64,000 nt of DNA, from the IMG/VR virus record IMGVR_UViG_2854558644_000001, one strand, 5' to 3'. This DNA comes from a virus. Its lineage: Duplodnaviria > Heunggongvirae > Uroviricota > Caudoviricetes. The notes below the pieces were generated by a model. The model saw only the letters and a list, made by a program, of their open reading frames with translations. It was not told where the DNA came from and searched no databases. Every line of letters begins with the position of its first letter. The first letter of the stretch is position 1. The translations under genes and the position numbers were made by a program. Below, in pieces: positions 548 to 61,807 of the stretch.

Positions 548-1609
548 TGAAACCCTCCTTAGAAATGTGTTTTATACAATTTTATATTCTCTTTTTTAAA
601 TTTGTTTTAAGATAAAATTCTTTACATGGGATATAAGGCAAAAAATGTATGATTTTGAGTCTATTTTGGATTTTTATATGTCAGGTGGCTAGTTGTTAGG
701 GTAGAGGGTAAAAATTGAAATTTGAGCTGTGAGAGTGGATTTTTATATAGGCGTGAGAATTGATAATATTATTTATAGTAAATGTATGTGAATGTATATA
801 GATAGTTAATGTAATTTTGGGTGATGTAAAAAATTGACCTTGTATTTTGAGCATTTAGGTGGGTAAAAATGATTTTAGGTATTATTGGTAGGGTGGAATG
901 AAAAGACTGTGTATGGGCGTGATAGAGGGTTTAGATGAGAAATGGAATTTTTGAGTATTGCTATAGTAGGATTTTTTTATGGTTTGTATTGGATTTTTTT
1001 GGCTGTTTTTGTGATGTATATAGGTAATTTTAGATTTTTTGATGTGGTTTTTATGTAGCCCCCTTATTGTTGATTAGAGATTTATGATTTATGTAATTGA
1101 TTATAATGATGATTCTGGATTAAAAATGGTTATCGGTAAAAGTGCTTATAAATAAGGATAATTTTGGATTTGTGAGTGAATTTTTGATGAAATGAAAGTT
1201 TGATTTTTGGATTGTAAGATGGGTGAAAGTGGCTTGGTTAGTAGGTTTGAGCGATATGGGGTACGATAAGGGATTTGAGATGGGAAAATTGGGATTTTGC
1301 TTGATTTTATTGGGGATTTAATGGATTGAGAATAAGATAATTTATTTTTAATAAAAAATTTTTTGACTTGGTGTGTAAATAAACCTGCTATACCTGGTTT
1401 TACATTTCATAAGGGTTTAATCCGTTTTTGCCACCCCCATTCTCGCCATACTCAAAACCACGAAAAATAAGCATTTTTGGAAGTTTTGCACCGAAACAAG
1501 CAGAATTTTTTTGTGATAAGGTGTAGCCAAGCTGAACGGCTGACGAGCAGTTCAGTGAACAAAAAATATTTTTTTAAGTCTCTAAGATGAGACAGAAAGG
1601 TTGATAATT

Positions 1610-2038
1610 ATGAAAGAATTAAAGAATGCAGTTATCGTTAATGGAGTAGCTTATCAGATTAACGCTACAGAAGCACAGAAAATCGCTAAACTCTTAGGAC
1701 TTGGAGCAGTTGAACAGCCTAAGACAGAGACACCTAAAGACACAACACCTAAGTCAGAGCCTAAGACAGCATCTAAGAAGTCTACACGGATTGTCGGCTC
1801 TCTTGAGTGCGATGGCAAGTTCGTCCGTACAATCAAGGGTGCATTTCTGTCAAGCAAGGCTAGGTTTGCCATCAAGATGTCTGCGACCGAAGACTTTGGT
1901 GCAACTAAGCTTGGCAAGGGCAACAAGACATATGACGCACTTGCAAAGGATGACAAGTATGTGCAGATTTACGAGTTCAAGTCTGCTGAAGATGCTACAA
2001 AATTCATGGATAATCAGCAGAGCCGTATGGTTAAATAA
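1610..2038 (+). CDS. hypothetical protein (GC-richer than neighbours)
   Basis: ORF with GAAAGG SD 9 nt upstream of ATG 1610 (track ORF begins at TTG 1601); composition ~45% GC vs ~30% elsewhere. Confidence 0.55.
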   Translation: MKELKNAVIVNGVAYQINATEAQKIAKLLGLGAVEQPKTETPKDTTPKSEPKTASKKSTRIVGSLECDGKFVRTIKGAFLSSKARFAIKMSATEDFGATKLGKGNKTYDALAKDDKYVQIYEFKSAEDATKFMDNQQSRMVK

Positions 2039-3223
2039 CTCGACTAGGCGAGTATAAACCGTGTCAAGCCTAGTGCGTTACCCACTCTTTGAGTGGGTAG
2101 GTCACAAAATCTACATCATCATTTTGTGATGGGTTCTCCATCATCAACCCTATTTTTGACTTACATTTTCGTCAAGATAGGGTTCTTTTTTACTCAACCC
2201 ATAAGTCAATAAAAATACATAACATTAAACGCAATACAAATAAAACCGTGATAAGCCGTAGAGGTACGACAGTTCTTCCCAAACGGTCTATTAAAGTCAC
2301 CCAAAATTTAAAGACGCAATGCATAAAGGTTACTGTATGTGTATTCTAGTGTGATTAACCTACACACGACATCAATACACTTACACAAAATACAACCTAG
2401 TTAGGAGGTGTGCGTTAATAAGTAGGTGACGATAGACTTCAGGTTTTGTGGACAAGTAGATGTTCTGCTCTAAACTATCAGCACAACACTACAAGAATAC
2501 ATATGATTGAACGGTCAAGGGTGTGGTTTGCGAGAACCATAAACGAGGAGATGTCGTATAGGGCTGACAAGGGTGTTACGGAGCACTCCCAAGTGGCTAG
2601 GTCAGCGAATATAAACTCTATATTCGGGAAAACTTGGTGAACAGCGCATGAAAAGTGGTGGCTGGTGGCAAGTACATAATACATAGTGTGTAAACACTAT
2701 CACATAGCATCTTGGTACAAATATAGTGAGTGATTGACACAATTCACTATCATAAAAATTAACAATGATTCGATAGCTCAGTATATAGTTAGCGACTGGC
2801 GTTTCGGTAAAACGATGAAAACTTATGCTTGGTTATTTGAAAAGTTGCTAGTGGAACAATACACAAGAATTAGTGGTAACACTAATGTTGAATGTATCTA
2901 TCTACATTCGTGTATGAGGTATGAGCAGTACAATCCCTGCCTATAAATCCTACTGTCTAGTGTAACTAGGTTGATAGTATATTCTGTAATCAGTTCGAGA
3001 ATAATGTCACTGATAAAACCGTATGTCTTGCAATCGGTTTGTATAAAACAGTGTAAGGTATTCGTAACAGTTGGAGCGAATTAAAATAATAAACTGTTGA
3101 CTGCATAAGGGTTAGTCACCTGATGATAAGTAATAAGTGAATATACCATTTAATGTTTGAGGTCTACCTAATAGGAAATAAGTGAATATATAACAGAGGA
3201 TGTGAGGGCTACTTATCTTATTT

Positions 3224-3297
3224 GTGCTTATATGTGGTGAATAATATAATGCTAACAACATTATACTTATCAGTAGGTTCGATTCCTACAAGCACAT
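3224..3297 (+). tRNA. tRNA-like element (degenerate D-arm), anticodon loop cuAACaa
   Basis: 74 nt: 7-bp acceptor TGTGCTT/AAGCACA, perfect T-arm GTAGG-TTCGATT-CCTAC, 5-7 bp anticodon stem TAATG/CATTA with loop CTAACAA; D-stem only 2-4 bp. Confidence 0.3.
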
Positions 3298-3348
3298 TGA
3301 CATTTAATGTCGAAAATAAAATATAAATTATATAGGAGGGTTAATACT

Positions 3349-21476: not shown

Positions 21477-21491
21477 AGGATGGTGATAAAA

Positions 21492-22502
21492 ATGAAAGGT
21501 AGATTAGAGCATTCATTACAAATTGAAAAAAATATAAAAGAAATATTATCTACATTACCACAATATGTAACTGAATATTATTATGAGTTCAAATCAGGAA
21601 GGCAACCAACAGCATGTAGAGAATATATAAGAAAAATAGCAAAATTTTTATATTTTATTGATTCGAGTGATATTAGACATATTAAAGCTACAGAAGTAAC
21701 AAAGTTTGATATTACTCGTTTTTTGGATTCAATAGAATATATAACAGATAACAATGGAAATAAAAAACAATCTTCATTATCTTATAGGAAGTGTTATCAT
21801 AGTGTACTAAAAAGTTTTTTTGATTTCTTAATAGAGAATGATTATATAACTGAAAATCCTATGAATAAAATAAAAAGGGTTCGTGGAGAAGATTTTGTTA
21901 ATAGAAAATTCTTAGACGAAGATGATTTAAAAGAAGTACTATTGGCTGTAGAATGTGGAGCAGGAAATAGAAGGTCAGTTGCTATGCAATATAAATGGAA
22001 ATCGAGAGACAGAGCAATTATGATGCTATTTATGCAAACTGGAATACGTGAAACAGCATTAAGCGAAATAAATATTGAAGATATCGACTTTGAGAATCAT
22101 TCTATTAAAAGTGTTATAGAGAAAGGACATAAAGAAAAAACATTTTCTATGAGTTCTCAATTAGAAAATGCAGTCTCAGAATGGATAAGTGATCGAAAAA
22201 GAATTATAGATAAAAATGAAGATGCATTATTCATTTCAAAATCAAAAACTCGTATGACACAAAGATCATTGTCGGATATTGTAATAAAATACACAAAGGA
22301 AGCTCTTGGATATTCGGTAACGCCCCATAAGTTAAGAGCATCATTTGCTAATATTATGTTGGAAAAGACAGATGAAAATATATATGTGGTTCAGCAGTTA
22401 TTAGGACATGCTAGAACAGAAACAACAAAAATATATTTGAAAAATAATTTAAATCAGTATAATGATATGGCTGCTGATATAATTGCTAAATCTATTTTTT
22501 AA
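21492..22502 (+). CDS. tyrosine recombinase / phage integrase family protein
   Basis: C-terminal HKLRASFA...LLGHARTETTKIYL (R-H-R-Y catalytic signature). Confidence 0.7.
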   Translation: MKGRLEHSLQIEKNIKEILSTLPQYVTEYYYEFKSGRQPTACREYIRKIAKFLYFIDSSDIRHIKATEVTKFDITRFLDSIEYITDNNGNKKQSSLSYRKCYHSVLKSFFDFLIENDYITENPMNKIKRVRGEDFVNRKFLDEDDLKEVLLAVECGAGNRRSVAMQYKWKSRDRAIMMLFMQTGIRETALSEINIEDIDFENHSIKSVIEKGHKEKTFSMSSQLENAVSEWISDRKRIIDKNEDALFISKSKTRMTQRSLSDIVIKYTKEALGYSVTPHKLRASFANIMLEKTDENIYVVQQLLGHARTETTKIYLKNNLNQYNDMAADIIAKSIF

Positions 22503-24606: not shown

Positions 24607-25407
24607 ATGGCGAGAAAGAAAGTAAATAAAGAATTAACCATAGAAGAACAGTTACAGAAAGAAAGAGAAAATGGATTAAGTTTTATTAAAGATGAAGTGT
24701 TACATCTGAATGAACCAACTTATAGATTTGAAGTAGGAGATAAGGTAAAATATGGTGCATTAAAAGACTGTACAGTAAAAGAAGTGTTATATGATGGAAA
24801 GGTATACGGATTACATTGTATTTCTACTGAAGAAAATTATGGGAATCCTTATGATAGAGAAGTATATAGAGTTGCTGAATGGACTAGCGTTAGACCGCTT
24901 ACTAATGGGGATTCAAGGTTTAGTAAAAATCAGGATGTAAAAATCAATTTTATCAATTCAATGATTGAGTCTCTTATCCATAAATATTATGCATTTGGAG
25001 TAGATATGAATCCTGAATATCAGAGAGGATATGTATGGGAGTTAGAAGATAAACAGTTGCTTATAGACAGTATTTTTAACAATATTGATATAGGTAAATT
25101 TGCTTTTATTCATTTGGATGATAAGAAATGGACTGAGACGGGTAATGGATATGAAATACTTGATGGTAAGCAGAGATTAAGCACAATTATTGATTTTTAC
25201 GAGAATAGATTTCCATATAACGGAGTTTATTACAATGACTTATCGGCTAAAGATAAGAATGTTTTCTTAAACCATCATATTGTACAAGGGGAAGTAAGAG
25301 AAGCAGATAGAAGGGCAGTATTAAAATATTTCTTAATGCTCAATAGAACTGGAAAGTCAATGGATCAGTCACACCTTGATAAAGTTGAGAAAATGTTAGA
25401 AGAATAA
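24607..25407 (+). CDS. DUF262 (ParB-like nuclease superfamily, GmrSD N-domain-like) protein
   Basis: LDGKQRLSTI matches DGQQR signature of DUF262. Confidence 0.55.
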   Translation: MARKKVNKELTIEEQLQKERENGLSFIKDEVLHLNEPTYRFEVGDKVKYGALKDCTVKEVLYDGKVYGLHCISTEENYGNPYDREVYRVAEWTSVRPLTNGDSRFSKNQDVKINFINSMIESLIHKYYAFGVDMNPEYQRGYVWELEDKQLLIDSIFNNIDIGKFAFIHLDDKKWTETGNGYEILDGKQRLSTIIDFYENRFPYNGVYYNDLSAKDKNVFLNHHIVQGEVREADRRAVLKYFLMLNRTGKSMDQSHLDKVEKMLEE

Positions 25408-25514: not shown

Positions 25515-25820
25515 TTGAGTAGATATAAGAATGGAAATCCAAAACATGCAAGCAGATTCATATGTATGAAATGTATGAATGAAAATATGTTAGCCAGTGG
25601 AATTCAGAGACAGAGACAAAGAGAACGAAAACATATTAAAGATTTGTATTGTTTGAAGTGCGGAGAGGTAACGAAGTGTATCGAAGTAAGATTTTGTGAT
25701 TCATATGAAGAAATTTTTGAGGCTGCAAAGATAAAAAGAGAGAATTATTACATAGACGAATATGAAAGTGAGGTTGATGAATATGTGTTACAAAATAGAA
25801 GTACAAAACAAAAATGCTGA
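25515..25820 (+). CDS. zinc-ribbon protein (TTG start)
   Basis: CMKCMNEN...CLKCGE; SD GAGGTGA 7 nt upstream of TTG. Confidence 0.45.
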   Translation: MSRYKNGNPKHASRFICMKCMNENMLASGIQRQRQRERKHIKDLYCLKCGEVTKCIEVRFCDSYEEIFEAAKIKRENYYIDEYESEVDEYVLQNRSTKQKC

Positions 25821-26763
25821 AAAGCTTAATAGGAAGTTGGATGAGTTAAATTTTCCTATATATATGAGAAAATATTTCACTGTTAAAATTGAAAGTAAAG
25901 CAGGTGCTTTAAATTATCTTGGAGTTATTGTAGATTTGCTCAATTGGTTTATTGAAGAGAAACTTATTGATAAAACAAATATTTCAGATATTGAGCCATC
26001 AGATTTTACTGACATTATGGCAGAAGATATCACGTTATATTTAAAGACTAAAGAACAGAATGGAATGTCACCTACGACATTAGAAACTAGAAAACATATA
26101 ATAAGTAGTTTTTGGGATTATATGAGTAGAGTGAAGGGAACTGAAATTAAAGATGGATTCTTTAAAGATGTAACTTATAAAGGGATTCCATCTGGAAACA
26201 AGTTAACTAAAAAACTTCCAACAGAAAAGCAACTTAATGATATGGAAGAAAAAATAATGTGGAAAAAGGATATTTCAGTAAGAAATAGAAATATTGCTAT
26301 TTTTCGAGTATTAAGAGGAACTGGAATAAGAGAATCTGAACTTGCTGGTTTGGATTTATCTAATTTGCATTTAGATGAAGAAATGCCTTATATTACTATT
26401 CTTGGTAAAGGTGTGTACAGAGAAATGCAAAATAGAATGGTATATCTTAGCGGATCTGCTTTAAAAGCTATAAGAGAGTGGTTAGAATACAGAAGCACAT
26501 TAAGTAACATTATTGATACAGAAGCTGTGTTTGTAAATAAAAATGGAACTCGTACAACAGAAAGAAATATCAAACAGATATTTGAGAATTATGGAAATGG
26601 TATAACACCACATATGATGCGTCATTATTATGCTAGTATAATGAACAGAAATGGAAATCTTGCATTTGTACAGCAGCAGTTAGGACATAGTAATGTAAAT
26701 ACAACAGTTAATAATTATGCAAATGGTGCAGTGGGGATGAAAGATGTGTTAAACAATATGTAA
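25777..26763 (+). CDS. tyrosine recombinase / phage integrase family protein
   Basis: HMMRHYYAS...LGHSNVNTTVNNY catalytic signature; overlaps upstream gene by ~40 nt. Confidence 0.7.
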   Translation: MNMCYKIEVQNKNAEKLNRKLDELNFPIYMRKYFTVKIESKAGALNYLGVIVDLLNWFIEEKLIDKTNISDIEPSDFTDIMAEDITLYLKTKEQNGMSPTTLETRKHIISSFWDYMSRVKGTEIKDGFFKDVTYKGIPSGNKLTKKLPTEKQLNDMEEKIMWKKDISVRNRNIAIFRVLRGTGIRESELAGLDLSNLHLDEEMPYITILGKGVYREMQNRMVYLSGSALKAIREWLEYRSTLSNIIDTEAVFVNKNGTRTTERNIKQIFENYGNGITPHMMRHYYASIMNRNGNLAFVQQQLGHSNVNTTVNNYANGAVGMKDVLNNM

Positions 26764-28763: not shown

Positions 28764-28964
28764 ATGGTGATATGTAGAAACTGTTTAATTCCTATGGTAG
28801 AGACTATGAGTTTTCAACCAGGAGAAAGAAATCGACATAATAGATATTGTAAGTGTCCAAAATGTAAAAGAGAAACTAAGCATATTAAAATTATGAATTC
28901 TGAATTGTCTTTCGGGGAATATATGAATAAAGAAATTCAAAAGGCGGGTAGAAGAAATGATTAA
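28764..28964 (+). CDS. zinc-ribbon protein
   Basis: CRNC...CKCPKCKRE. Confidence 0.5.
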   Translation: MVICRNCLIPMVETMSFQPGERNRHNRYCKCPKCKRETKHIKIMNSELSFGEYMNKEIQKAGRRND

Positions 28965-29598
28965 TGAAGAGATGATGAGGGTTATTAACAATAATCCTGA
29001 AATGATGAAAATTATTAATGATTATTCAGACAACGAAAACAAAAAATTAAAAAGAATATGTCATAAGATTTGGCATGGAAAAGTTGAAGTTAGTGAATAC
29101 GATGATTTATATGAGGTGGCAATGGATTGTCTTATGGAAGCAGTAGTCTCATTTGATCAAAATAAATCTCGTTTTGAAACTTTTCTGACGGGTAATATTG
29201 CAAGAAAGACAAGCACATGGATGAGAGACAACAAATATAGGTTAAAGCGTCAGAATCTCTTAAGGGACGAAAATGGAAAACTAATTCTTGATGAAAAGGG
29301 TAATCCTCAAATTATTATGAATGTCTCATTGGATGTTAATACAGATGAGGTGAAAAGTATTAAAGAGAATTTACCTTCAAGAGAGAATGTAGAAAGAGAA
29401 ATATTCACAGAAGAATATACTGACAAGGTTGAGTTATATTTACAGCAATTACCACGAAAACAGGAAAGGGTAGCGAGGTTATTATCTCAACAATATACAA
29501 AAGATGAGATATTGAAAATATTACATATAACTGCAAATGAATACAATGATTGTTTATCAGGGTTAAGAAAATATGAATACATATCATTATTATTTTAA
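28957..29598 (+). CDS. sigma-70 family RNA polymerase sigma factor-like protein
   Basis: region-2-like DDLYEVAMDCLMEAVVSFDQNKSRFETFLTGNIARK and region-4-like LPRKQERVARLL...TKDEILKILHIT. Confidence 0.5.
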   Translation: MINEEMMRVINNNPEMMKIINDYSDNENKKLKRICHKIWHGKVEVSEYDDLYEVAMDCLMEAVVSFDQNKSRFETFLTGNIARKTSTWMRDNKYRLKRQNLLRDENGKLILDEKGNPQIIMNVSLDVNTDEVKSIKENLPSRENVEREIFTEEYTDKVELYLQQLPRKQERVARLLSQQYTKDEILKILHITANEYNDCLSGLRKYEYISLLF

Positions 29599-38452: not shown

Positions 38453-39961
38453 TTGACAGAGAATAAAGAAAAAAATAATTATTGTGAGTTAAGTGTAATT
38501 GAACTTTGCAGTGGCATTGGAGCACAGATGAAGGGTATTGATAATACTCATCTATTTAATGCAAATATGATTGCAACAGCAGATTTAGATAAAGAAGTCG
38601 TGGTTAGTTATGCTGCAATTCATTGTGGTTTGACTAATGAAATGATTGAAAACTATGAAGATTATCCAAGCAAAGAAGAAATGGTAAAACAGCTTACAGA
38701 TAAGAGACTTGGATATGATTTTAAGAAAGATGTTCTGTATGATTGGGAGAAACTTTCACGAAAGAAGGACAAAACGAAAGGTATTGAGAAATATTGGTTA
38801 GCAGACCATATTTCACATAATCTTGGCGATATGATGCAGATTGAGTCACTGCCATATAGTGATTTACTTACATACTCGACTCCATGTACAGATCTTTCCA
38901 TTGCTGGTAAGCAAGAAGGATTAAAGTGGACATGTCATGATTGTGGTTGTGAATATGATCCATCAGAATTAGATGTAGATACTCGTTATACTTGCCCTAA
39001 TTGTGGCAGCCACAATATTAAATCAACTCGTTCAGGTTTATTGTATGAAGTTGAGAGACTTCTTGTAAAAGCAAAAGAGAATAATACATTACCAAAGTAT
39101 TTGCTTATGGAGAATGTAGATGCTCTTGTATCAAAGAAGTATATTGACAGTTTTAAGGATTGGTTGATTCGACTTGATAACTTGGGATATAACTCATATT
39201 ATCAGACAATCAATGCAAAGAATACTGGTATTCCACAGAATCGTAATAGAATCTTCTGTATCTCTATTCGTAAGGATATTGATACCAAGTCATTTGAATT
39301 TCCACAGCCTTTTGATACAGGAATCAGATTAAAGGATTTATTAGAAACAGATAGCAGTGTTCTGGAGAAATATTTCTTATCTGATGAAGTACAAAAAAGA
39401 CTTCAGATAACAGATCCAAAATTTGAAAAGAATGTAGTAGGAACAACAATTGGACAAAATTGTACCAGGTTAGGTAACAGAGATTTAGTTTATCAGCAGG
39501 ATTCAGTAATGGGTGCTTTAGTGGCAACTGATTATAAACAACCAAAACAGATTTTTGCCAATTCAAACGAACCAATACATATTGCTGATTTATGCAGCGA
39601 AAAGTTTCAGAGAATGCATGAGCAGTCTCGCAGAGTATATAGCGAAGATGGAATTGCACCAGCTATGCATACTTGCGGTGGTGGTAATACAGAACCAAAG
39701 GTTGAGAGAGATAATTTAAAAGTCGTAAGAAAGCTTACACCAAAAGAGTGTCATAGGCTCATGGGATTCAATGATATTGATTATGAGAATTGTAAAGCAG
39801 TTGGAATGTCTGATACTCAGGGATATAAACAAAGCGGTAACAGTATAGTGACAACTTGCATCTCTTTGTTGATTGAGCATTTATATAAGGCTCAGTATGA
39901 TAATACATATATTTGTACAGATGAGAAGATGGTAAATTTTCATCAGCCACAAGTGGATTAA
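38453..39961 (+). CDS. DNA (cytosine-5)-methyltransferase with zinc-ribbon insertion
   Basis: motif I LCSGIGAQ, motif IV TPCTDLSIAGK, motif VI LLMENVDAL, motif VIII GIPQNRNRIF, TRD-end RRVYSEDGIAPAMHTCGGG, IX RKLTPKECHRLMGF, X GNSIVTT; starts at TTG (first ATG would delete motif I). Confidence 0.8.
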   Translation: MTENKEKNNYCELSVIELCSGIGAQMKGIDNTHLFNANMIATADLDKEVVVSYAAIHCGLTNEMIENYEDYPSKEEMVKQLTDKRLGYDFKKDVLYDWEKLSRKKDKTKGIEKYWLADHISHNLGDMMQIESLPYSDLLTYSTPCTDLSIAGKQEGLKWTCHDCGCEYDPSELDVDTRYTCPNCGSHNIKSTRSGLLYEVERLLVKAKENNTLPKYLLMENVDALVSKKYIDSFKDWLIRLDNLGYNSYYQTINAKNTGIPQNRNRIFCISIRKDIDTKSFEFPQPFDTGIRLKDLLETDSSVLEKYFLSDEVQKRLQITDPKFEKNVVGTTIGQNCTRLGNRDLVYQQDSVMGALVATDYKQPKQIFANSNEPIHIADLCSEKFQRMHEQSRRVYSEDGIAPAMHTCGGGNTEPKVERDNLKVVRKLTPKECHRLMGFNDIDYENCKAVGMSDTQGYKQSGNSIVTTCISLLIEHLYKAQYDNTYICTDEKMVNFHQPQVD

Positions 39962-44327: not shown

Positions 44328-45071
44328 ATGTTAGAAATTAACAAAATATACAATGAAGATTGCCTTGAAGGTATGAAAAAGATTGATGATAAATCGGTCG
44401 ATGCGATTATTACGGATCTTCCTTATGGACAAACTTCACGAAATAAATGGGATTCAGTTATTCCATTTAAACCATTATGGGAACAGTATGAAAGAATCAT
44501 TAAAAACAATGGTGCAATTATTCTATTTGCGAATGGTATGTTTACTGCAGATTTAATGCAAAGCAATCGTAAGCTTTGGAAATATAATCTGATTTGGGAG
44601 AAAACACAGCCAACAGGATTTCTAAATGCTAAGAAAATGCCATTACGCTCACACGAAGATATCTGTATTTTCTATAAAAAACTTCCAACTTATAATCCAC
44701 AGAAAACAACTGGACATCCAAGAAAAGTTAGCAAAGCAGAACATAAGACTAACTGTAAAGAGACTACTGATTATGGAGAACATGGTCTTACTACTTATGA
44801 TAGTACAGAAAGATACCCTAAGTCGGTATGGACATTTGCAAAGGATATCCAAAAGTCGGCACTTCATCCGACACAAAAGCCTGTAGCACTGATTGAAGAG
44901 TTGATCAAGACCTACACAAATCCAGGAGATTTAGTTCTTGATTCATGTGCAGGAAGTTGTACAACTGCAGTTGCAGCTTTGAATACAGGTAGAAATTACA
45001 TATGTTTTGAGAAGGACAAGGATATTTTTGAGGTTGGAAGTAAGAGAGTGAGAGAATACATAAATGAGTAA
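44328..45071 (+). CDS. beta-class DNA methyltransferase (N6-adenine or N4-cytosine; N6_N4_Mtase family)
   Basis: motif IV AIITDLPYG N-terminal and motif I VLDSCAGSCTTAVAA C-terminal. Confidence 0.75.
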   Translation: MLEINKIYNEDCLEGMKKIDDKSVDAIITDLPYGQTSRNKWDSVIPFKPLWEQYERIIKNNGAIILFANGMFTADLMQSNRKLWKYNLIWEKTQPTGFLNAKKMPLRSHEDICIFYKKLPTYNPQKTTGHPRKVSKAEHKTNCKETTDYGEHGLTTYDSTERYPKSVWTFAKDIQKSALHPTQKPVALIEELIKTYTNPGDLVLDSCAGSCTTAVAALNTGRNYICFEKDKDIFEVGSKRVREYINE

Positions 45072-48482: not shown

Positions 48483-49370
48483 TTGAAACAAAAATATGAA
48501 TGTATTGTATCACCCATATTTTATATGGGTAATAAGAAAAAACTTATTCAAAGGGGATTAATAGAACTATTCCCAAAGGACATTGATTGCTTTATTGATG
48601 TTTTTGCAGGTAGTTCAGTAGTCTCTATGAATACAAAAGCTAATAAATATTTCATTAATGATAATGATAAAAACTTAAAGCAGTTATATAAGTTATTCAA
48701 AATATATAATTCTGATACAATTATTAATCATATCATTTCCAGAATTGATGAATATGGATTAGCGCAAGAAAGAACAAGTCATAAAGTATTTAATGATGAC
48801 AGAAAAGATAGATATAAAAATTCTTATTATGAATTTAGGAATTATTATAACACTCATAAAAATGCTCTTGATTTCTACACGCTTATGTTTTATTCATTTT
48901 CACAACAGTTTAGGTTCAATGATAAAGGTGAATTTAATATGCCATGTGGTAACGATTGTTTTTCTGATAAAAATCAAAAATATATTCGTAATGGTTGCAC
49001 ATTTTATCATTCTGATAATGTCCATATATTCAGTATGGACTTTCGCTCAATTCCAATAGATTCGATTACAACTAAAGATTTTGTATATTTAGATCCTCCA
49101 TATTTTAATACCACTGCTACATACAACGAGGCAGGTGGTTGGACTGAAAATGACGAAAATGATTTATATGATTTTTGTGAAAGACTTTCTGAGAATAATA
49201 TAAAATGGGGAATGTCTAATGTGTTTGAGAATAAAGGAATTATAAATCAAAAGTTGGTTGATTGGTGTGATAAGAACAATTTAAATGTATATACATTTGA
49301 TAAATTTACATATATGGCTTGTGGTAAAGGTAATTCAAATGCTAAAGAAGTATTTATAACAAACTATTAG
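48483..49370 (+). CDS. Dam-like (D12 class) N6-adenine DNA methyltransferase
   Basis: N-terminal SPIFYMGNKKKLI (FLKWAGGK-like), FAGSSVV motif I, YLDPPYF motif IV; TTG start needed to retain N-terminal motif. Confidence 0.75.
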   Translation: MKQKYECIVSPIFYMGNKKKLIQRGLIELFPKDIDCFIDVFAGSSVVSMNTKANKYFINDNDKNLKQLYKLFKIYNSDTIINHIISRIDEYGLAQERTSHKVFNDDRKDRYKNSYYEFRNYYNTHKNALDFYTLMFYSFSQQFRFNDKGEFNMPCGNDCFSDKNQKYIRNGCTFYHSDNVHIFSMDFRSIPIDSITTKDFVYLDPPYFNTTATYNEAGGWTENDENDLYDFCERLSENNIKWGMSNVFENKGIINQKLVDWCDKNNLNVYTFDKFTYMACGKGNSNAKEVFITNY

Positions 49371-51789: not shown

Positions 51790-53109
51790 ATGTATTGTGC
51801 TTATATCACAACATTAAAAGGATTAAGAAAACATAGTAACGCTGATAGATTACAGTGTGTAGAAGTATTTGGACAGAATGTAATTGTAGATTTGAGTTAT
51901 CAGGAAGGACAGAAAGTAGTCTTCTTCCCATCTGATGGTCAGTTGTCACTTGAATACGCAACAGATAATAACCTTGTTAGGAAGAAAGACGAGAATGGAA
52001 ACAATATTGGTGGCTACATGGATGCTGAAAAAAGAAACGTAACTGCCATTAGACTTAGAGGCGAGAAGTCAGAAGGTCTTGTGTTGCCAATTGAGACACT
52101 TGCTAAGTATACAGATATTTCAAAATTAAAAGATGGCGATCAGATTACAGTTCTTGGTGGTCATGAAATTTGTCAGAAATATATCCCAAGAGGAAAGAGT
52201 CGTTCAAAAAACAATGGAAACAATTCAAATAAGAAGAACAAGTTTCAGAAAGAGACAATATCATATCCATTTTTTGAAGAACATAAGGATACTGCACAGC
52301 TTGCATATAATATGTCAGCATTTAAGCCAGGAGATACGATTTATATTACTCGTAAGCTCCACGGAACATCAGCTCGTACTATGAAGACTGTCAAGGTTAC
52401 AAAGAAGAATAGTAAGCTGAGAAAGTTTTTACATATAAAGCCAAAGGTTATAAGAGAAGTTTCTGTTGTATCTGGTAGCAGAAGAGTTGTGTTAAAGGAT
52501 ATGACAAAGAATGATGGATATTATGCTGATAATGGATTTAGAAAGAAGTACCACGATTTATTAAAAGATAAGCTTCCTGAAGGGGCTGAAATTTTCTATG
52601 AAATTGTTGGTTATGTAAATGAAACAACACCTATTATGGGTTCTGTGTCTAATAAAGGTGTTAAAGAAAAGAAATTTACAAAGAAGTTTGGCGACACTAC
52701 AACATTCTCATATGGTTGTGAACCAGGTGAAAATGAGATGTATGTATATCGAATGACAATGACAACAGCAGATGGAACAGTTGTTGAAGTACCTTGGGAG
52801 ACTGTAGAAGTATGGTGTGACAAGTTAGGTGTTAAGCATGTACCTGATTTAGAGAAGTTTATCTATACTACACCAGAAGATTTGAAAGAAAGAGTAAATA
52901 AATATCTTGATGGTATGCCAGCAGATGAAATCGGCAAGACACATGTTGCCGAAGGTATAGTTGTTCGTATTGATAACAGAGCAACATTCACGGCTTATAA
53001 GGATAAGGTGTTTGAATTTAAGGTAATTGAGGGAATCGCCAAAGATACATCTGATGTACCTGATATGGAAGAAGCTGAAGAATTATTTGAGGAGACATTA
53101 AATGAATAA
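51790..53109 (+). CDS. ATP-dependent RNA ligase (Rnl family, KxHG motif I)
   Basis: YITRKLHGTSAR nucleotidyltransferase motif I like T4 Rnl2 KIHGTN; adjacent to polynucleotide kinase. Confidence 0.55.
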   Translation: MYCAYITTLKGLRKHSNADRLQCVEVFGQNVIVDLSYQEGQKVVFFPSDGQLSLEYATDNNLVRKKDENGNNIGGYMDAEKRNVTAIRLRGEKSEGLVLPIETLAKYTDISKLKDGDQITVLGGHEICQKYIPRGKSRSKNNGNNSNKKNKFQKETISYPFFEEHKDTAQLAYNMSAFKPGDTIYITRKLHGTSARTMKTVKVTKKNSKLRKFLHIKPKVIREVSVVSGSRRVVLKDMTKNDGYYADNGFRKKYHDLLKDKLPEGAEIFYEIVGYVNETTPIMGSVSNKGVKEKKFTKKFGDTTTFSYGCEPGENEMYVYRMTMTTADGTVVEVPWETVEVWCDKLGVKHVPDLEKFIYTTPEDLKERVNKYLDGMPADEIGKTHVAEGIVVRIDNRATFTAYKDKVFEFKVIEGIAKDTSDVPDMEEAEELFEETLNE

Positions 53110-53992
53110 ACCTACATTATGGGTTATGTGTGGTTTGAGTGGTAGTGGCAAATCAACCATTGCCACTCAGATTGCTAATGAAAATCCAAATACAATAATC
53201 GTATCATCAGATGCAATTCGTGAAGAATTAACTGGTAATTACGAAGACCAAGAACATAATGAAGAAGTGTTTAAAATTTTTCACAATAGAATCCGTAAGA
53301 ATTTGGAGAATAAAAAGAATGTAATTGCAGATGCAACTAATCTGACTATGAAATCTCGTAGAGCAATTATGATGAAAGTAAATGGTTTAAATGTTAGAAA
53401 AGTGTGTGTGATTATTCCAAAGCCATTTGAACAGTGTAAGATTGATAATAAAAATCGTGAGCATCCTGTTCCTAATGAAGTATTGGATAAACAGATTAGA
53501 AGATTTCAGATCCCATTTTACGAAGAAAAATTTGATGAGATTCAGATAAATGTATTTCATAAAGAGAATCGTTTAACTCTTGGAGAAATGTTTTCTATGA
53601 TGGAAGGGTTTGATCAGAAAAACCCTCATCATACTATGGATTTATATAATCACTCATTTCATACATATGAGTTATTTAGTAGTAAATGCTATCCAGCAAA
53701 ATATAATATAGCTGCATTATTACACGATTTTGGAAAAATGTATTGTCAAACATTTGATGAGAATGGCATAGCTCATTACTATGAACATCATGCAATCGGT
53801 TCTTATTTAATTTTAGAGAACCTATCAGGTATATTTTACGAAAATATTGGTGACATATGTTTTCTTATCAACTATCATATGATGCCTTTTAGTTGGGATA
53901 CTGATAAAGCAAAGCAGCGTTGGAAAGAAAGATTTGGAGAATATAAATATAAGATGCTTTTAGATTTTAACGAATGTGATAGAGCGAGGTAA
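53102..53992 (+). CDS. polynucleotide kinase (P-loop) fused to HD-domain phosphohydrolase
   Basis: Walker A GLSGSGKST; HD motifs HHTMDLYNH...LLHDFGK. Confidence 0.65.
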   Translation: MNKPTLWVMCGLSGSGKSTIATQIANENPNTIIVSSDAIREELTGNYEDQEHNEEVFKIFHNRIRKNLENKKNVIADATNLTMKSRRAIMMKVNGLNVRKVCVIIPKPFEQCKIDNKNREHPVPNEVLDKQIRRFQIPFYEEKFDEIQINVFHKENRLTLGEMFSMMEGFDQKNPHHTMDLYNHSFHTYELFSSKCYPAKYNIAALLHDFGKMYCQTFDENGIAHYYEHHAIGSYLILENLSGIFYENIGDICFLINYHMMPFSWDTDKAKQRWKERFGEYKYKMLLDFNECDRAR

Positions 53993-60715: not shown

Positions 60716-61807
60716 ATGAAAGACATTAAGATTGTAATAGGTGCTAACTTTGGAGATTGTGGAAAGGGATTAATGACAGATTATTTCTCACAGAAACCTA
60801 ATAGTATTGTTGTTTGTTCAAATGGTGGTGCTCAGAGAGGACATACCGTAACAACGCCTGATGGAATCAGACATGTCTTTCATCATTTTGGATCTGGAAC
60901 ATTCAATCATGCAAGTACATATTTATCTGAGGATTTTATTGTTAATCCAATTATCTTTAAGCAGGAATATGATGAATTGATGAAATTAGGATATATTACG
61001 AATGTTTATATCAATCAAAATTGTATGTTGACTACACCTTTTGATATGATGGCAAATCAGATTATAGAAGAAAATCGTGGAAAAAATAAACATGGTAGTT
61101 GTGGCTTGGGAATTTTTGAAACTATCAAAAGATATAAAGCTGGCATAACTGATGTAGATAATCATATCAGGGAATACTACTTAGAACAATTTGAAAGAGA
61201 GAATATTATATTAACAGATGAATGGTCAAAAATATTCCTTGATAATGGTATATTTGAACACTTTTTAGATGATTGGGATTTTATGAATAATCACTCATTG
61301 GCTATATCAGATAATTATTTCTTAAATCAATTTGACAATATTGTATTTGAAGCTGCACAAGGTTTATTGCTTGATCAGAACAACACAGAATATTTTCCAC
61401 ATCTAACACCGTCTAATACAGGTATTAAAAATCCCAAGAGAATAATTGAAAATGTTGAATGGAATGATGAGATAAATATTGAAACTTGTTATGTATCTCG
61501 TACTTATTTAACAAGACATGGTGCTGGTAAATTCCCATCTGAATGTAATAAGAGATTTATCAACGAATATATGTTTGATAAAACAAATGTGCCAAATCCA
61601 TTCCAGGATACATTGAGATATGGAACACTGGATTTAGGAGAATTATATAGTAGATGCTCTAATGATATAGGAAACTTTGGAGATAAAAAATCAATCACCA
61701 TTACACATTGTAATGAATATGATTGGGATAATGATAAATTGATTGAGTTATTCAAGGATTGGAATATTTATTACTCAGATGGTGAAACACATAATGATGT
61801 GAACTGA
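60716..61807 (+). CDS. adenylosuccinate synthetase family protein (PurA/PurZ-like, short form)
   Basis: N-terminal VIGANFGDCGKGLMTDYF (GDEGKGK-like P-loop) and NGGAQRGHTV...HVFHHFGSG (QGGHNAGHT...LIPSG-like); 363 aa. Confidence 0.7.
   Translation: MKDIKIVIGANFGDCGKGLMTDYFSQKPNSIVVCSNGGAQRGHTVTTPDGIRHVFHHFGSGTFNHASTYLSEDFIVNPIIFKQEYDELMKLGYITNVYINQNCMLTTPFDMMANQIIEENRGKNKHGSCGLGIFETIKRYKAGITDVDNHIREYYLEQFERENIILTDEWSKIFLDNGIFEHFLDDWDFMNNHSLAISDNYFLNQFDNIVFEAAQGLLLDQNNTEYFPHLTPSNTGIKNPKRIIENVEWNDEINIETCYVSRTYLTRHGAGKFPSECNKRFINEYMFDKTNVPNPFQDTLRYGTLDLGELYSRCSNDIGNFGDKKSITITHCNEYDWDNDKLIELFKDWNIYYSDGETHNDVN

Follow-up and report, generated by a model that had tools for sequence, protein, structure and literature searches.

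A conserved cytosine-poor, G/T-rich non-coding tract at the left border of an RNA island in a tailed-phage genome: a possible replication-control zone

The DNA described here is a stretch of 64,000 nucleotides (nt; hereafter, the window) from the virus record IMGVR_UViG_2854558644_000001 (Caudoviricetes), and the element in question is a cytosine-poor, G/T-rich non-coding tract located near its left end, at positions 620-1380 of the + strand. An initial annotation had placed at 548-1380 a C-depleted tract with iterated motifs, lying where gene orientation flips, and had read it as a phage replication origin or packaging site. The flip was confirmed. To the left of the tract, a gene encoding a DUF3825 protein is read leftward from the minus strand (start codon at 546-544); to the right, from 1601 to 64000, every gene of at least 100 amino acids (aa) that does not overlap a longer + strand open reading frame (ORF) is on the + strand. 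The rightward block opens with ORF142, a small gene of no recognised family, which is followed by a pistol self-cleaving ribozyme and a structured RNA of about 1.2 kb. RelA/SpoT-like and Bro-N-like proteins and an endolysin are the other products annotated among the neighbours of the tract.

The + strand of the tract is made up of 41% T, 29% A, 26% G and 3.7% C, about 70% A+T in all. There are 36 cytosines in the 833 nt of 548-1380 and 25 in the 737 nt of the core (640-1376; 3.4%), compared with 10.8% C on the + strand of the reference region 3300-64000. The tract contains the lowest-C 700-nt window within the 64 kb (24 C, the next unrelated locus having 41). The GC skew ranged from 0.66 to 0.83 in each 200-nt window between 601 and 1400, was close to 0 on both flanks and was about 0.3 on the + strand over the remaining window. 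No substantial ORF was found, the longest one within the tract being of 52 aa and the longest stop-free run of 77 codons. The tract annotated initially is thus real as a C-depleted, G/T-rich and non-coding region between 620 and 1380, and its left limit had been set too far out: positions 548-619 are of ordinary composition and correspond to the ribosome-binding site (RBS) and promoter zone of the DUF3825 gene. A GAGAATA..TATAA element reappears beside the first leftward gene in relatives.

Next, this composition was compared with the less constrained positions of the same genome. At the four-fold degenerate sites of + strand genes, the frequencies were 47.5% A, 5.9% C, 8.1% G and 38.5% T. Since these sites themselves have only 5.9% C, the low C of the tract, which is at or below that level, is close to the weakly constrained background, and the purine fraction is about 55% in both. 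The difference lies in G, which is threefold higher in the tract on one strand only (26% vs 8%), and in the excess of T over A. Other intergenic regions contain, on the same strand, 11% C and 18% G. Because recognition and bendability of double-stranded DNA are indifferent to the strand that carries G, such an asymmetry points to an oriented motif, a single-strand function or a local mutation regime. A candidate for the latter is deamination (C to T and A to G) of a + strand left exposed, as occurs on the mitochondrial heavy strand.

About 18 distinct relatives of the locus, mostly carried by 150-180-kb contigs from human-gut metagenomes, were available for comparison; an alignment of 18 sequences was made, and 13 lineages were used in the composition and motif tests. 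A C-poor tract was found at the same place in every relative for which upstream sequence exists, including those whose ORF142 is only 42-76% identical, and it ends about 200 nt before the ORF142 start. Its length varies from 170 to 840 nt. The composition was kept across lineages despite this variation in sequence and length (C 2-5%, G 26-38%); for the interval 1150-1349, the means over the 13 lineages were 2-5% C and 30-38% G. In the 12-kb relatives, the cumulative G-C curve reached a local minimum either at the tract or a little to its left, 0.8-2.8 kb before ORF142 begins. Two exact-pattern scans of viral contigs returned mostly chance matches and no new family members.

Two modules, A and B, were distinguished within the tract, which have the same composition without detectable homology to each other. 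Module A is present in some lineages only. It is 90% identical to positions 3624-4000 of L007, in which an inserted minus-strand gene for a RelA/SpoT-domain protein parts A from B, and it is missing from L005, L008, L009 and L012. The idea that A is a diverged copy of B was rejected, as the B profile hidden Markov model (HMM) never matched A and the local alignment gave a p value of about 0.07. Module B, in contrast with A, aligns in all lineages, and its HMM yielded one match per genome (E 1e-16 to 1e-56). The mean pairwise identity was 0.53-0.67 for module B, 0.31-0.35 for the unalignable flanks and about 0.8 for ORF142 and the downstream RNA. A 2.2-kb island (1120-3300), collinear in every relative and bordered by variable sequence on both sides, begins on the left with module B; neither the sequence left of module B nor the genes past 3300 are conserved. 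Accessory minus-strand genes were observed in or beside the tract of several relatives (L007 4107-5264; L010 4518-5375; L161 1458-2327; L165 4051-5351); they include the RelA/SpoT-domain protein and a faint Bro-N match, and those of L007 and L010 have their own terminator. As different accessory genes sit in or beside the tract from one lineage to another, the locus appears to be a gene-insertion hot spot.

The rare cytosines of module B fall in conserved motifs, namely GGTTATCGG, CTTATAAATAAG and CGATATGGGGTA/CGATAAGGG (Table 1). The motif GGTTATCGG and the palindrome CTTATAAATAAG are candidate protein-binding sites, and a similar palindrome, CCTTATAATAAGG, occurs at a second place in L161. 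The half-site of the CGATATGGGGTA/CGATAAGGG direct repeat is the inverse of the TTATCG found at 1131-1136, and both repeat copies carry CGATA without exception in every lineage, even the distant L139 and L164.

The initial annotation had also listed four short words said to recur more than ten times. As exact words they do not, the counts in the tract being three for TGGATTTTT, none for GATTTTGG and one each for GGGATTTTG and TGATTTTTGG. What does recur at this level is a degenerate family, comprising GAT(3+), seen 15 times, GATTTT, seen 10 times, and GGATTT, seen 8 times. The enrichment over dinucleotide shuffles, a test which that annotation had itself named, was borne out: 500 dinucleotide-preserving shuffles gave an expectation of 1.8 for GGATTT and 2.7 for GATTTT (z about 5). 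The density of GGATTT is about 13 times that of the + strand in the remaining window. GAT(3+) was enriched in 12 of the 13 lineages, and runs of at least four T were enriched 2-3-fold in all 13; these T-tracts are all on one strand. A repeat finder applied to the tract reported only pairs or triples of 9-19 nt, irregularly spaced, and a regular spacing of 21-22 nt was confined to two small GGATTT clusters (969/991 and 1271/1292/1314).

Several other readings of these motifs were examined and abandoned. An array of G-quadruplexes was ruled out, given that runs of at least three G are enriched in some lineages and not in others and that the G4Hunter maximum is 0.8-1.8. A sponge for CsrA-type proteins was rejected since 16 GGA were seen for about 15 expected from base composition (our own arithmetic), and a sponge for ribosomes since strong Shine-Dalgarno-like sites are depleted (none seen vs 3.5 ± 1.5 expected). 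A CRISPR-repeat-like reading of TTTGAGC (3 copies) was dropped because this motif is unconserved in relatives. Likewise, a telomere or template function was rejected: the 11-nt complementarity of 812-822 to the structured RNA is at chance level, and module A, which contains it, is not universal.

The edges of the tract were then considered. In most relatives, TAGTTTTATGGTAG precedes the CCCCC run that bounds module B on its 5' side, and a GGG run located 5-10 nt downstream could pair with it as a small hairpin, which is absent in the window lineage. In the L162-type lineages, a + strand promoter-like site (TTGATA-16-TATGGT) ends just before the C run; in L162, a hairpin that is terminator-like on both strands is found just upstream of this site. 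On the right side, the hexamer spacing in the conserved TTGACTTGGTGTGTAAATAAACCTGCTATACC block is unfit for a canonical sigma-A promoter, and no conserved promoter was detected there with a position weight matrix (PWM). A search for sigma-A promoters gave fewer promoter-like sites than in shuffled sequences, and none on the + strand within 620-1380; canonical promoters were found elsewhere in the window. A cluster of early sigma-A promoters was excluded by this comparison with shuffles and by a PWM scan of the relatives. The proposal that GGTGTGTAGATAAA and TAAGGT..AGCC represent a recurrent phage promoter motif was not retained either, as they do not recur within the 64 kb.

Folding analyses of the tract were negative. 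RNAalifold applied to 13 sequences gave a consensus structure of -1.3 kcal/mol with 8 pairs, none of them in the C-poor part; the z-scores of the minimum free energy (MFE) were -0.3 for the + strand and -0.9 for the minus strand, and the minus strand of module B reached -5.5 kcal/mol over 291 nt. No Rfam family matched the tract. A structured non-coding RNA (ncRNA) in the tract was rejected on these three grounds. It was concluded that the tract is conserved and compositionally unusual, and that it is most likely neither a protein-coding nor a structured-RNA gene, and cis-acting.

Table 1. Features of the tract and of the adjoining RNA island (window coordinates)
Feature	Position	Strand	Basis or remark
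Leftward-gene control zone	548-619	-	RBS AAGGAGGG (complement of 551-558); promoter-like -10 TATAAA (complement of 581-586, within GAGAATATAAAAT)
Module A	612-1010	+	C-poor, G/T-rich; some lineages only
CCCCC run	1059-1063	+	5' boundary of module B (alignments)
Module B core	1121-1342	+	nhmmer envelope; single-copy, sequence-conserved, C-poor
GGTTATCGG (1128-1136) and palindrome CTTATAAATAAG (1145-1156)	1128-1156		Near-invariant columns (A1 and 18-sequence alignments)
Direct repeat CGATATGGGGTA / CGATAAGGG	1252-1273	+	Most conserved block of module B
Three GGGATTT-led units, 21-22 nt apart (1271, 1292, 1314)	1271-1330	+	Only iteron-like sub-array; partly conserved
A/T-only stretch, 28 nt, right end of module B	1337-1364		Sequence
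Conserved block TTGACTTGGTGTGTAAATAAACCTGCTATACC	1363-1394	+	All lineages; nowhere else in window
C-rich segment GTTTTTGCCACCCCCATTCTCGCCATACTC	1424-1453	+	Directly right of tract; ACCCCC invariant
Weak A/U hairpin and U run	1462-1480	+	Sequence
P1, extended -10 candidate for ORF142 and RNA island	1512-1522	+	Alignment columns; unique in window
5'-untranslated-region (5'-UTR) hairpin CTGAAC..GTTCAG	1532-1555	+	Compensatory change in L012 and L161 (CTCAAC..GTTGAG)
ORF142	1610-2038	+	First gene of rightward block; T/S-P-K-rich linker
Pistol self-cleaving ribozyme	2038-2106	+	Rfam RF02679, 60 bits vs gathering score 34.5
Large structured ncRNA, about 1.2 kb	2106-3300	+	RNAalifold and covariation
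tRNA-like 3' element of large RNA	3223-3297	+	ARAGORN: tRNA-Val(aac)

Read rightward from the tract, the island runs through the 1363-1394 block, the C-rich segment, the hairpin with its U run, P1, the 5'-UTR hairpin, ORF142 and the pistol ribozyme, and ends with the RNA of about 1.2 kb. The invariant C-rich GCCACCCCCATTCTCGCC, together with the hairpin and U run that follow it (1424-1480), may be a small RNA of its own; it can be likened to the C-rich seeds of Firmicute small RNAs and, loosely, to the anti-Shine-Dalgarno end of 16S rRNA. A conserved long-range pairing of this segment (1424-1453) with the G runs of the tract was rejected, because the best duplex sites differ between lineages. 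At the position of the 1462-1480 hairpin, L139, L164 and L147 carry a 9-bp hairpin, ACGGATTTT..AAAATCCGT, followed by ATTTTTTG, which resembles a + strand intrinsic terminator; with its 9-nt loop, this hairpin is not listed by the terminator scan and was read from the sequence. The candidate P1 reads TGTGaTAAGGT in the window, TGTGcTATAGT in L012 and L159, and TGgCATAAT in L010.

ORF142 is the most conserved protein of the locus. Its 329 homologues share many invariant residues, none of them has a Pfam domain, and ORF142 itself matched no Pfam or PHROG entry. An attempt to deduce its function from its fold failed: the AlphaFold2 model had a predicted local distance difference test (pLDDT) score of 61, matched no known fold and showed no recognisable DNA-binding fold. 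Its low-complexity linker (TPKD, TPKS, EPKT, SKKS) recalls the S/TPKK motifs, which bind the minor groove. The stop codon of ORF142 and the pistol ribozyme overlap by one base, the last of the codon and the first of the ribozyme. This ribozyme was present in nine of the nine relatives tested, with 60-73 bits (for example L005 6432-6501, L007 6444-6512, L012 6423-6491 and L139 4565-4636); its cleavage would separate the ORF142 mRNA from the downstream RNA.

For this downstream RNA, RNAalifold predicted 126 pairs in 2100-2770 and 103 in 2740-3320. In its first half, 97.6% of the cells were paired and 40 pairs showed changes on both sides, as compared with 21 in column shuffles (none of 500 reaching 40) and 2-7 in slid controls. 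No Rfam family was found for 2106-3300 at E≤5. Lineage-specific insertions are present in the middle of the RNA in some relatives (alignment A7, columns 1-300). The tRNA-like 3' element comprises an acceptor stem, an anticodon-like arm and a canonical GGTTCGATTCC T-arm, has no clear D-arm and stays below threshold with the Rfam tRNA model; RNase P or RNase Z might recognise it for processing. The RNA island is a better supported and probably more important lead than the tract itself.

The tract was compared with known systems, of which the closest in organisation is that of phage K (Kayvirus). By RNA sequencing, transcription of this phage was seen to leave out one locus only, the 450 bp of lowest GC content between gp190 and gp191, which were proposed to be the origin and which lie directly upstream of gp191, an abundant early long non-coding RNA (lncRNA) of 1.15 kb, and tRNAs (PMC9241854). 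The order of elements is the same here, with a non-coding region, a small gene, an RNA of about 1.2 kb and a tRNA or tRNA-like element. Both phages are large and of myovirus type, and phage K has a Firmicute host, as inferred for the present phage. In phage K, however, the flanking genes are on the same strand and not divergent, and no pistol ribozyme is annotated. The downstream RNA was not homologous to the phage K lncRNA by nhmmer.

Our preferred reading, held tentatively, is that the tract is a strand-polar unwinding or R-loop-type zone of replication initiation or control. According to this scheme, a protein would bind the sites of module B (the palindrome CTTATAAATAAG, the direct and inverted CGATA repeats and the oriented GAT(3+) motifs). 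Because the + strand is nearly free of C and the minus strand nearly free of G, the strands, once separated, would form no G-C hairpins, so that the region could stay open. Rightward transcription from the left-edge promoter-like site would cross the tract, and hybridisation of the G-rich transcript to the C-rich template would leave the G/T-rich strand displaced in an R-loop. The latter would in turn prime leading-strand synthesis, whose direction would be that of the + strand genes over the 64 kb. A single-copy module conserved between variable sides is the pattern expected of an essential cis site. Though far from assured, such a zone, with an origin as the leading candidate, is what best joins the position of the tract, the single-copy conservation of module B, the structure-free strands, the strand-specific excess of G and the analogy with phage K.

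R-loop origins are known from phage T4 (oriF(uvsY) and oriG(34)), from ColE1 RNA II and from the mitochondrial heavy-strand origin (OH) with its conserved sequence blocks (CSB), and their non-template strand is G-rich. The tract resembles them as a non-coding zone that follows, in L162-type lineages, a promoter-like site and has a G-rich strand, at the head of the would-be leading strand, and its G+T-rich and A+C-rich strands are like the heavy and light strands of mitochondrial DNA (mtDNA). It differs from them in a lower G content and density of G runs, and, whereas ColE1 RNA II is structured, the tract is unstructured. With iteron origins (lambda ori, SPP1 oriL, plasmid iterons), the tract shares an oriented short motif, a 21-22-bp spacing in places, one-sided A/T tracts and, in some lineages, an A/T-only stretch beside the repeats; near-identical units of 17-22 bp and an adjacent initiator gene are lacking here, and the A/T-only stretch is unconserved.

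A number of observations weigh against an origin of either kind. No tandem array was reported in the tract by Tandem Repeats Finder (TRF) and no cryptic tandem period by autocorrelation, results that also rule out a decayed short-period tandem repeat; direct repeats of about 17-22 bp that are nearly identical and regularly spaced do not occur in a set of three or more; and no DnaA box was found in the tract, the total in the window being equal to chance. No initiator, Rep, O, DnaA-like, helicase-loader or primase gene was found among the annotated neighbours, a negative that ORF142, being of no recognised family, keeps from being absolute, and the nearest replication-type gene is a clamp-like ORF about 11 kb away. 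The A/T-only stretch exists in about half of the lineages, is absent from the L152/L162/L009, L159 and L139 groups and, with an identity of 0.43, occupies the 50-nt bin of lowest conservation. The phasing of T-tracts, which showed peaks at 10.25 and 22.5 nt when pooled over lineages, is borderline in the window alone, and its pooled significance is inflated by shared ancestry. Concerning R-loops, the G content of 26-38% is under the requirement of R-loop predictors, and G3+ runs are not consistently enriched. The left-edge promoter-like site is degenerate in the window's own lineage, and the PWM scan of 18 relatives found no conserved canonical promoter in the tract on either strand. The skew switch is not diagnostic of an origin, because a flip in gene orientation alone gives the same switch. 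As regards phage K, A+T make up 81% of its region, which has nearly balanced C (10%) and G (9%), without G/C asymmetry, and contains two direct repeats of about 190 nt; its locus showed no detectable sequence similarity to the present one; and its assignment as an origin is itself inferred. No comparable tract exists in the first 50 kb of SPO1, and, given this and the symmetric phage K region, the tract was rejected as a general feature of Herelleviridae. The origin proposed in the initial annotation, plausible and partly supported, keeps its position, its conservation and its motif and T-tract enrichment, and loses the iteron-like array on which it had in part been based, which reduces to the two mini-clusters with a 21-22-nt spacing; neither DnaA boxes nor an adjacent initiator come to its aid, and the iteron mechanism is unsupported.

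Instead of replication, the tract may serve purely transcriptional or architectural control, an explanation that we hold to be doubtful. Operators and one-sided T-tracts would then assemble a DNA-binding protein of the phage or the host and time both gene blocks, without any role in replication, and ORF142, with its T/S-P-K-rich linker, would be a possible binding protein. The tract does lie between divergent units, with a promoter-like -10 on the left and P1 on the right, it contains conserved palindromic or repeated motifs with C as well as enriched T-tracts with the 10.25- and 22.5-nt phasing, the most conserved protein of the locus is encoded alongside, and hairpins at its edges could block read-through. 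A precedent is the p4/p6 region of phage phi29, which is situated between divergent early and late promoters, and where the assembly of p6 follows a bendability of about 24 bp more than the sequence. The location between divergent units and the pooled T-tract periodicity are the points of likeness; that region, however, is of about 220 bp, no p4/p6 homologue was found here and the evidence for periodicity is weak. Control DNA, moreover, rarely needs 300-800 nt and leaves unexplained why G is almost always on the + strand; the absence of a recognisable DNA-binding fold in ORF142 and the dispensability of module A in many lineages also argue against it. That the tract acts as RNA is a reading which we regard as unlikely: an unstructured, G/U-rich + strand transcript of 0.3-0.45 kb, either the leader of the RNA island or a separate molecule, could be a sponge, a decoy or a pairing partner. 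Being nearly C-free, it would be invisible to Rho; it would present single-stranded motifs rich in G and in U, and it might pair with C-rich seeds such as CCACCCCC just downstream. The strand-specific composition, the avoidance of Shine-Dalgarno-like sites and the RNA-centred neighbouring locus are consistent with such a transcript, as are the promoter-like site and CCC..GGG hairpin found 5' in several lineages and the terminator-like hairpin with a U run found 3' in two groups. On the other side, neither consensus structure nor covariation was detected, pairing with the C-rich segment is not conserved, no canonical promoter is conserved and the one at the edge is degenerate in the window lineage, GGA is unenriched, and U-tracts would make RNA polymerase pause or release. 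A related idea, which we judge improbable to the same degree, is that a C-free, structure-free, G/U-rich RNA acts in single-stranded form, priming replication through a persistent R-loop or else, unseen by Rho, cooperating with the RNA island as a sponge or pairing platform.

The composition could also be that of a neutral spacer, an insertion hot spot at a strand-asymmetric mutation equilibrium, in which only a few motifs of module B are under selection. This has a small chance of being correct. The four-fold sites are themselves poor in C, and the tract departs from them by a replacement of A by G with an unchanged purine fraction and with T exceeding A; an enrichment in G+T is expected from deamination of an exposed strand, as in the composition of the vertebrate mtDNA heavy strand. 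Furthermore, modules without detectable homology are alike in composition, length is variable, insertions are diverse, and module B evolves faster than ORF142 and the structured RNA. Nevertheless, module B remains alignable where its flanks are not, the positions of its motifs and its rare cytosines are conserved, and the other intergenic regions have a different composition, so the mutation regime would have to be local. Such a local regime implies a special state, for example persistent strand exposure, and thereby leads back to an origin or an R-loop. Turning to the minus strand, a leftward RNA would be structure-free with 26% C and 3.7% G, ideally suited to Rho, and the tract might be a Rho utilization (rut) site that insulates the left block from antisense or read-through transcription; this we consider very unlikely. 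Its composition and its -5.5 kcal/mol over 291 nt do agree with a C-rich, G-poor, unstructured stretch of at least 80 nt, as in rut sites, and L162-type lineages have a minus-strand terminator-like hairpin at the left edge of module B, but the 64 kb on the right contain no minus-strand gene or conserved minus-strand promoter, the inserted genes are already bordered by intrinsic terminators, and 300-800 nt far exceed what rut requires, the tract being much longer than known rut sites. Least probable of all is the packaging site of the initial annotation, in which the motifs would be sites for the small terminase subunit, or a genome end with a terminal-repeat boundary would lie in or near the tract. 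Oriented motifs with one-sided T-tracts resemble pac regions such as pacL/pacR of SPP1. Short metagenomic contigs bearing ORF142 mostly end 0-1.8 kb upstream of it, the upstream arm being the shorter one in 12 of 14 (binomial p about 0.007; our own count, from the contigs behind L146, L149, L151, L154, L160, L163, L001, L167 and others). A drop in coverage in a region of extreme composition or strain variation would explain these ends equally well as a physical end. The ends are scattered (-69 to -1.8 kb) without any single position, no terminase turned up among the annotated genes around the tract, and long contigs contain the locus internally, with its position varying arbitrarily. Nothing specific speaks for packaging.

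Concerning the identity of the phage, no similarity to GenBank phages was found by megablast or blastn, and a 685-aa protein of the window is 60-62% identical to proteins of Bacillus Herelleviridae. A Firmicute host is suggested by the strong Shine-Dalgarno sites and TTGACA/TATAAT promoters present elsewhere in the window. No homologue of ORF142 was found in GTDB species genomes, hence no prophage copies were available for host identification; as these genomes hold no copy, the phage is probably virulent. Some island-bearing contigs are much longer than the others (OBHX01000001.1, 420 kb; ERZ825159.7, 273 kb; the Logan/ENA contigs of 669 kb for P0044 and P0088), and could be concatemers, misassemblies, host-linked contigs or much larger relatives.

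Elsewhere, the window encodes two tRNAs, the clamp-like protein and a PurZ/PurA-like enzyme. The latter, an adenylosuccinate-synthetase-like ORF at 60716-61807, matched a PHROG family annotated as PurZ type (E 1e-65). PurZ would suggest a 2-aminoadenine genome, yet the window carries a Dam-like N6-adenine methyltransferase (48483-49370). Three DNA methyltransferases (C5, N6/N4 and D12) and a protein with a GmrSD N-terminal domain are encoded at 38453-39961, 44328-45071, 48483-49370 and 24607-25407, and together look like an anti-restriction or anti-defence set. An RNA ligase followed by an AAA_33 kinase with an HD-domain protein (51790-53992) looks like a tRNA-repair pair of the T4 Pnk/Rnl type. 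Sigma-70 region 2 was weakly matched by a 213-aa ORF (28957-29598; E 7e-5, slightly short of the Pfam threshold), which may encode a phage sigma factor; non-canonical promoters would then exist in the genome. Two tyrosine recombinase genes, about 4 kb apart, were also observed (21480-22502 and 25762-26763).

Hardly any origins or cis sites have been mapped in large virulent phages whose hosts are Gram-positive, and the tract, recurring at the strand switch throughout a family of uncultured gut phages of 150-180 kb, provides a concrete candidate. If its excess of G reflects chronic single-strandedness or R-loops, composition alone could serve to locate such sites when phage genomes come from metagenomes. 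On its right, the tract adjoins an island whose RNA lacks an Rfam family and whose organisation parallels the early lncRNA locus of the therapeutic phage K. Should a C-free RNA indeed act together with this island, the two would constitute an RNA-based early module, not described before, in the large virulent phages that infect Firmicutes of the gut.

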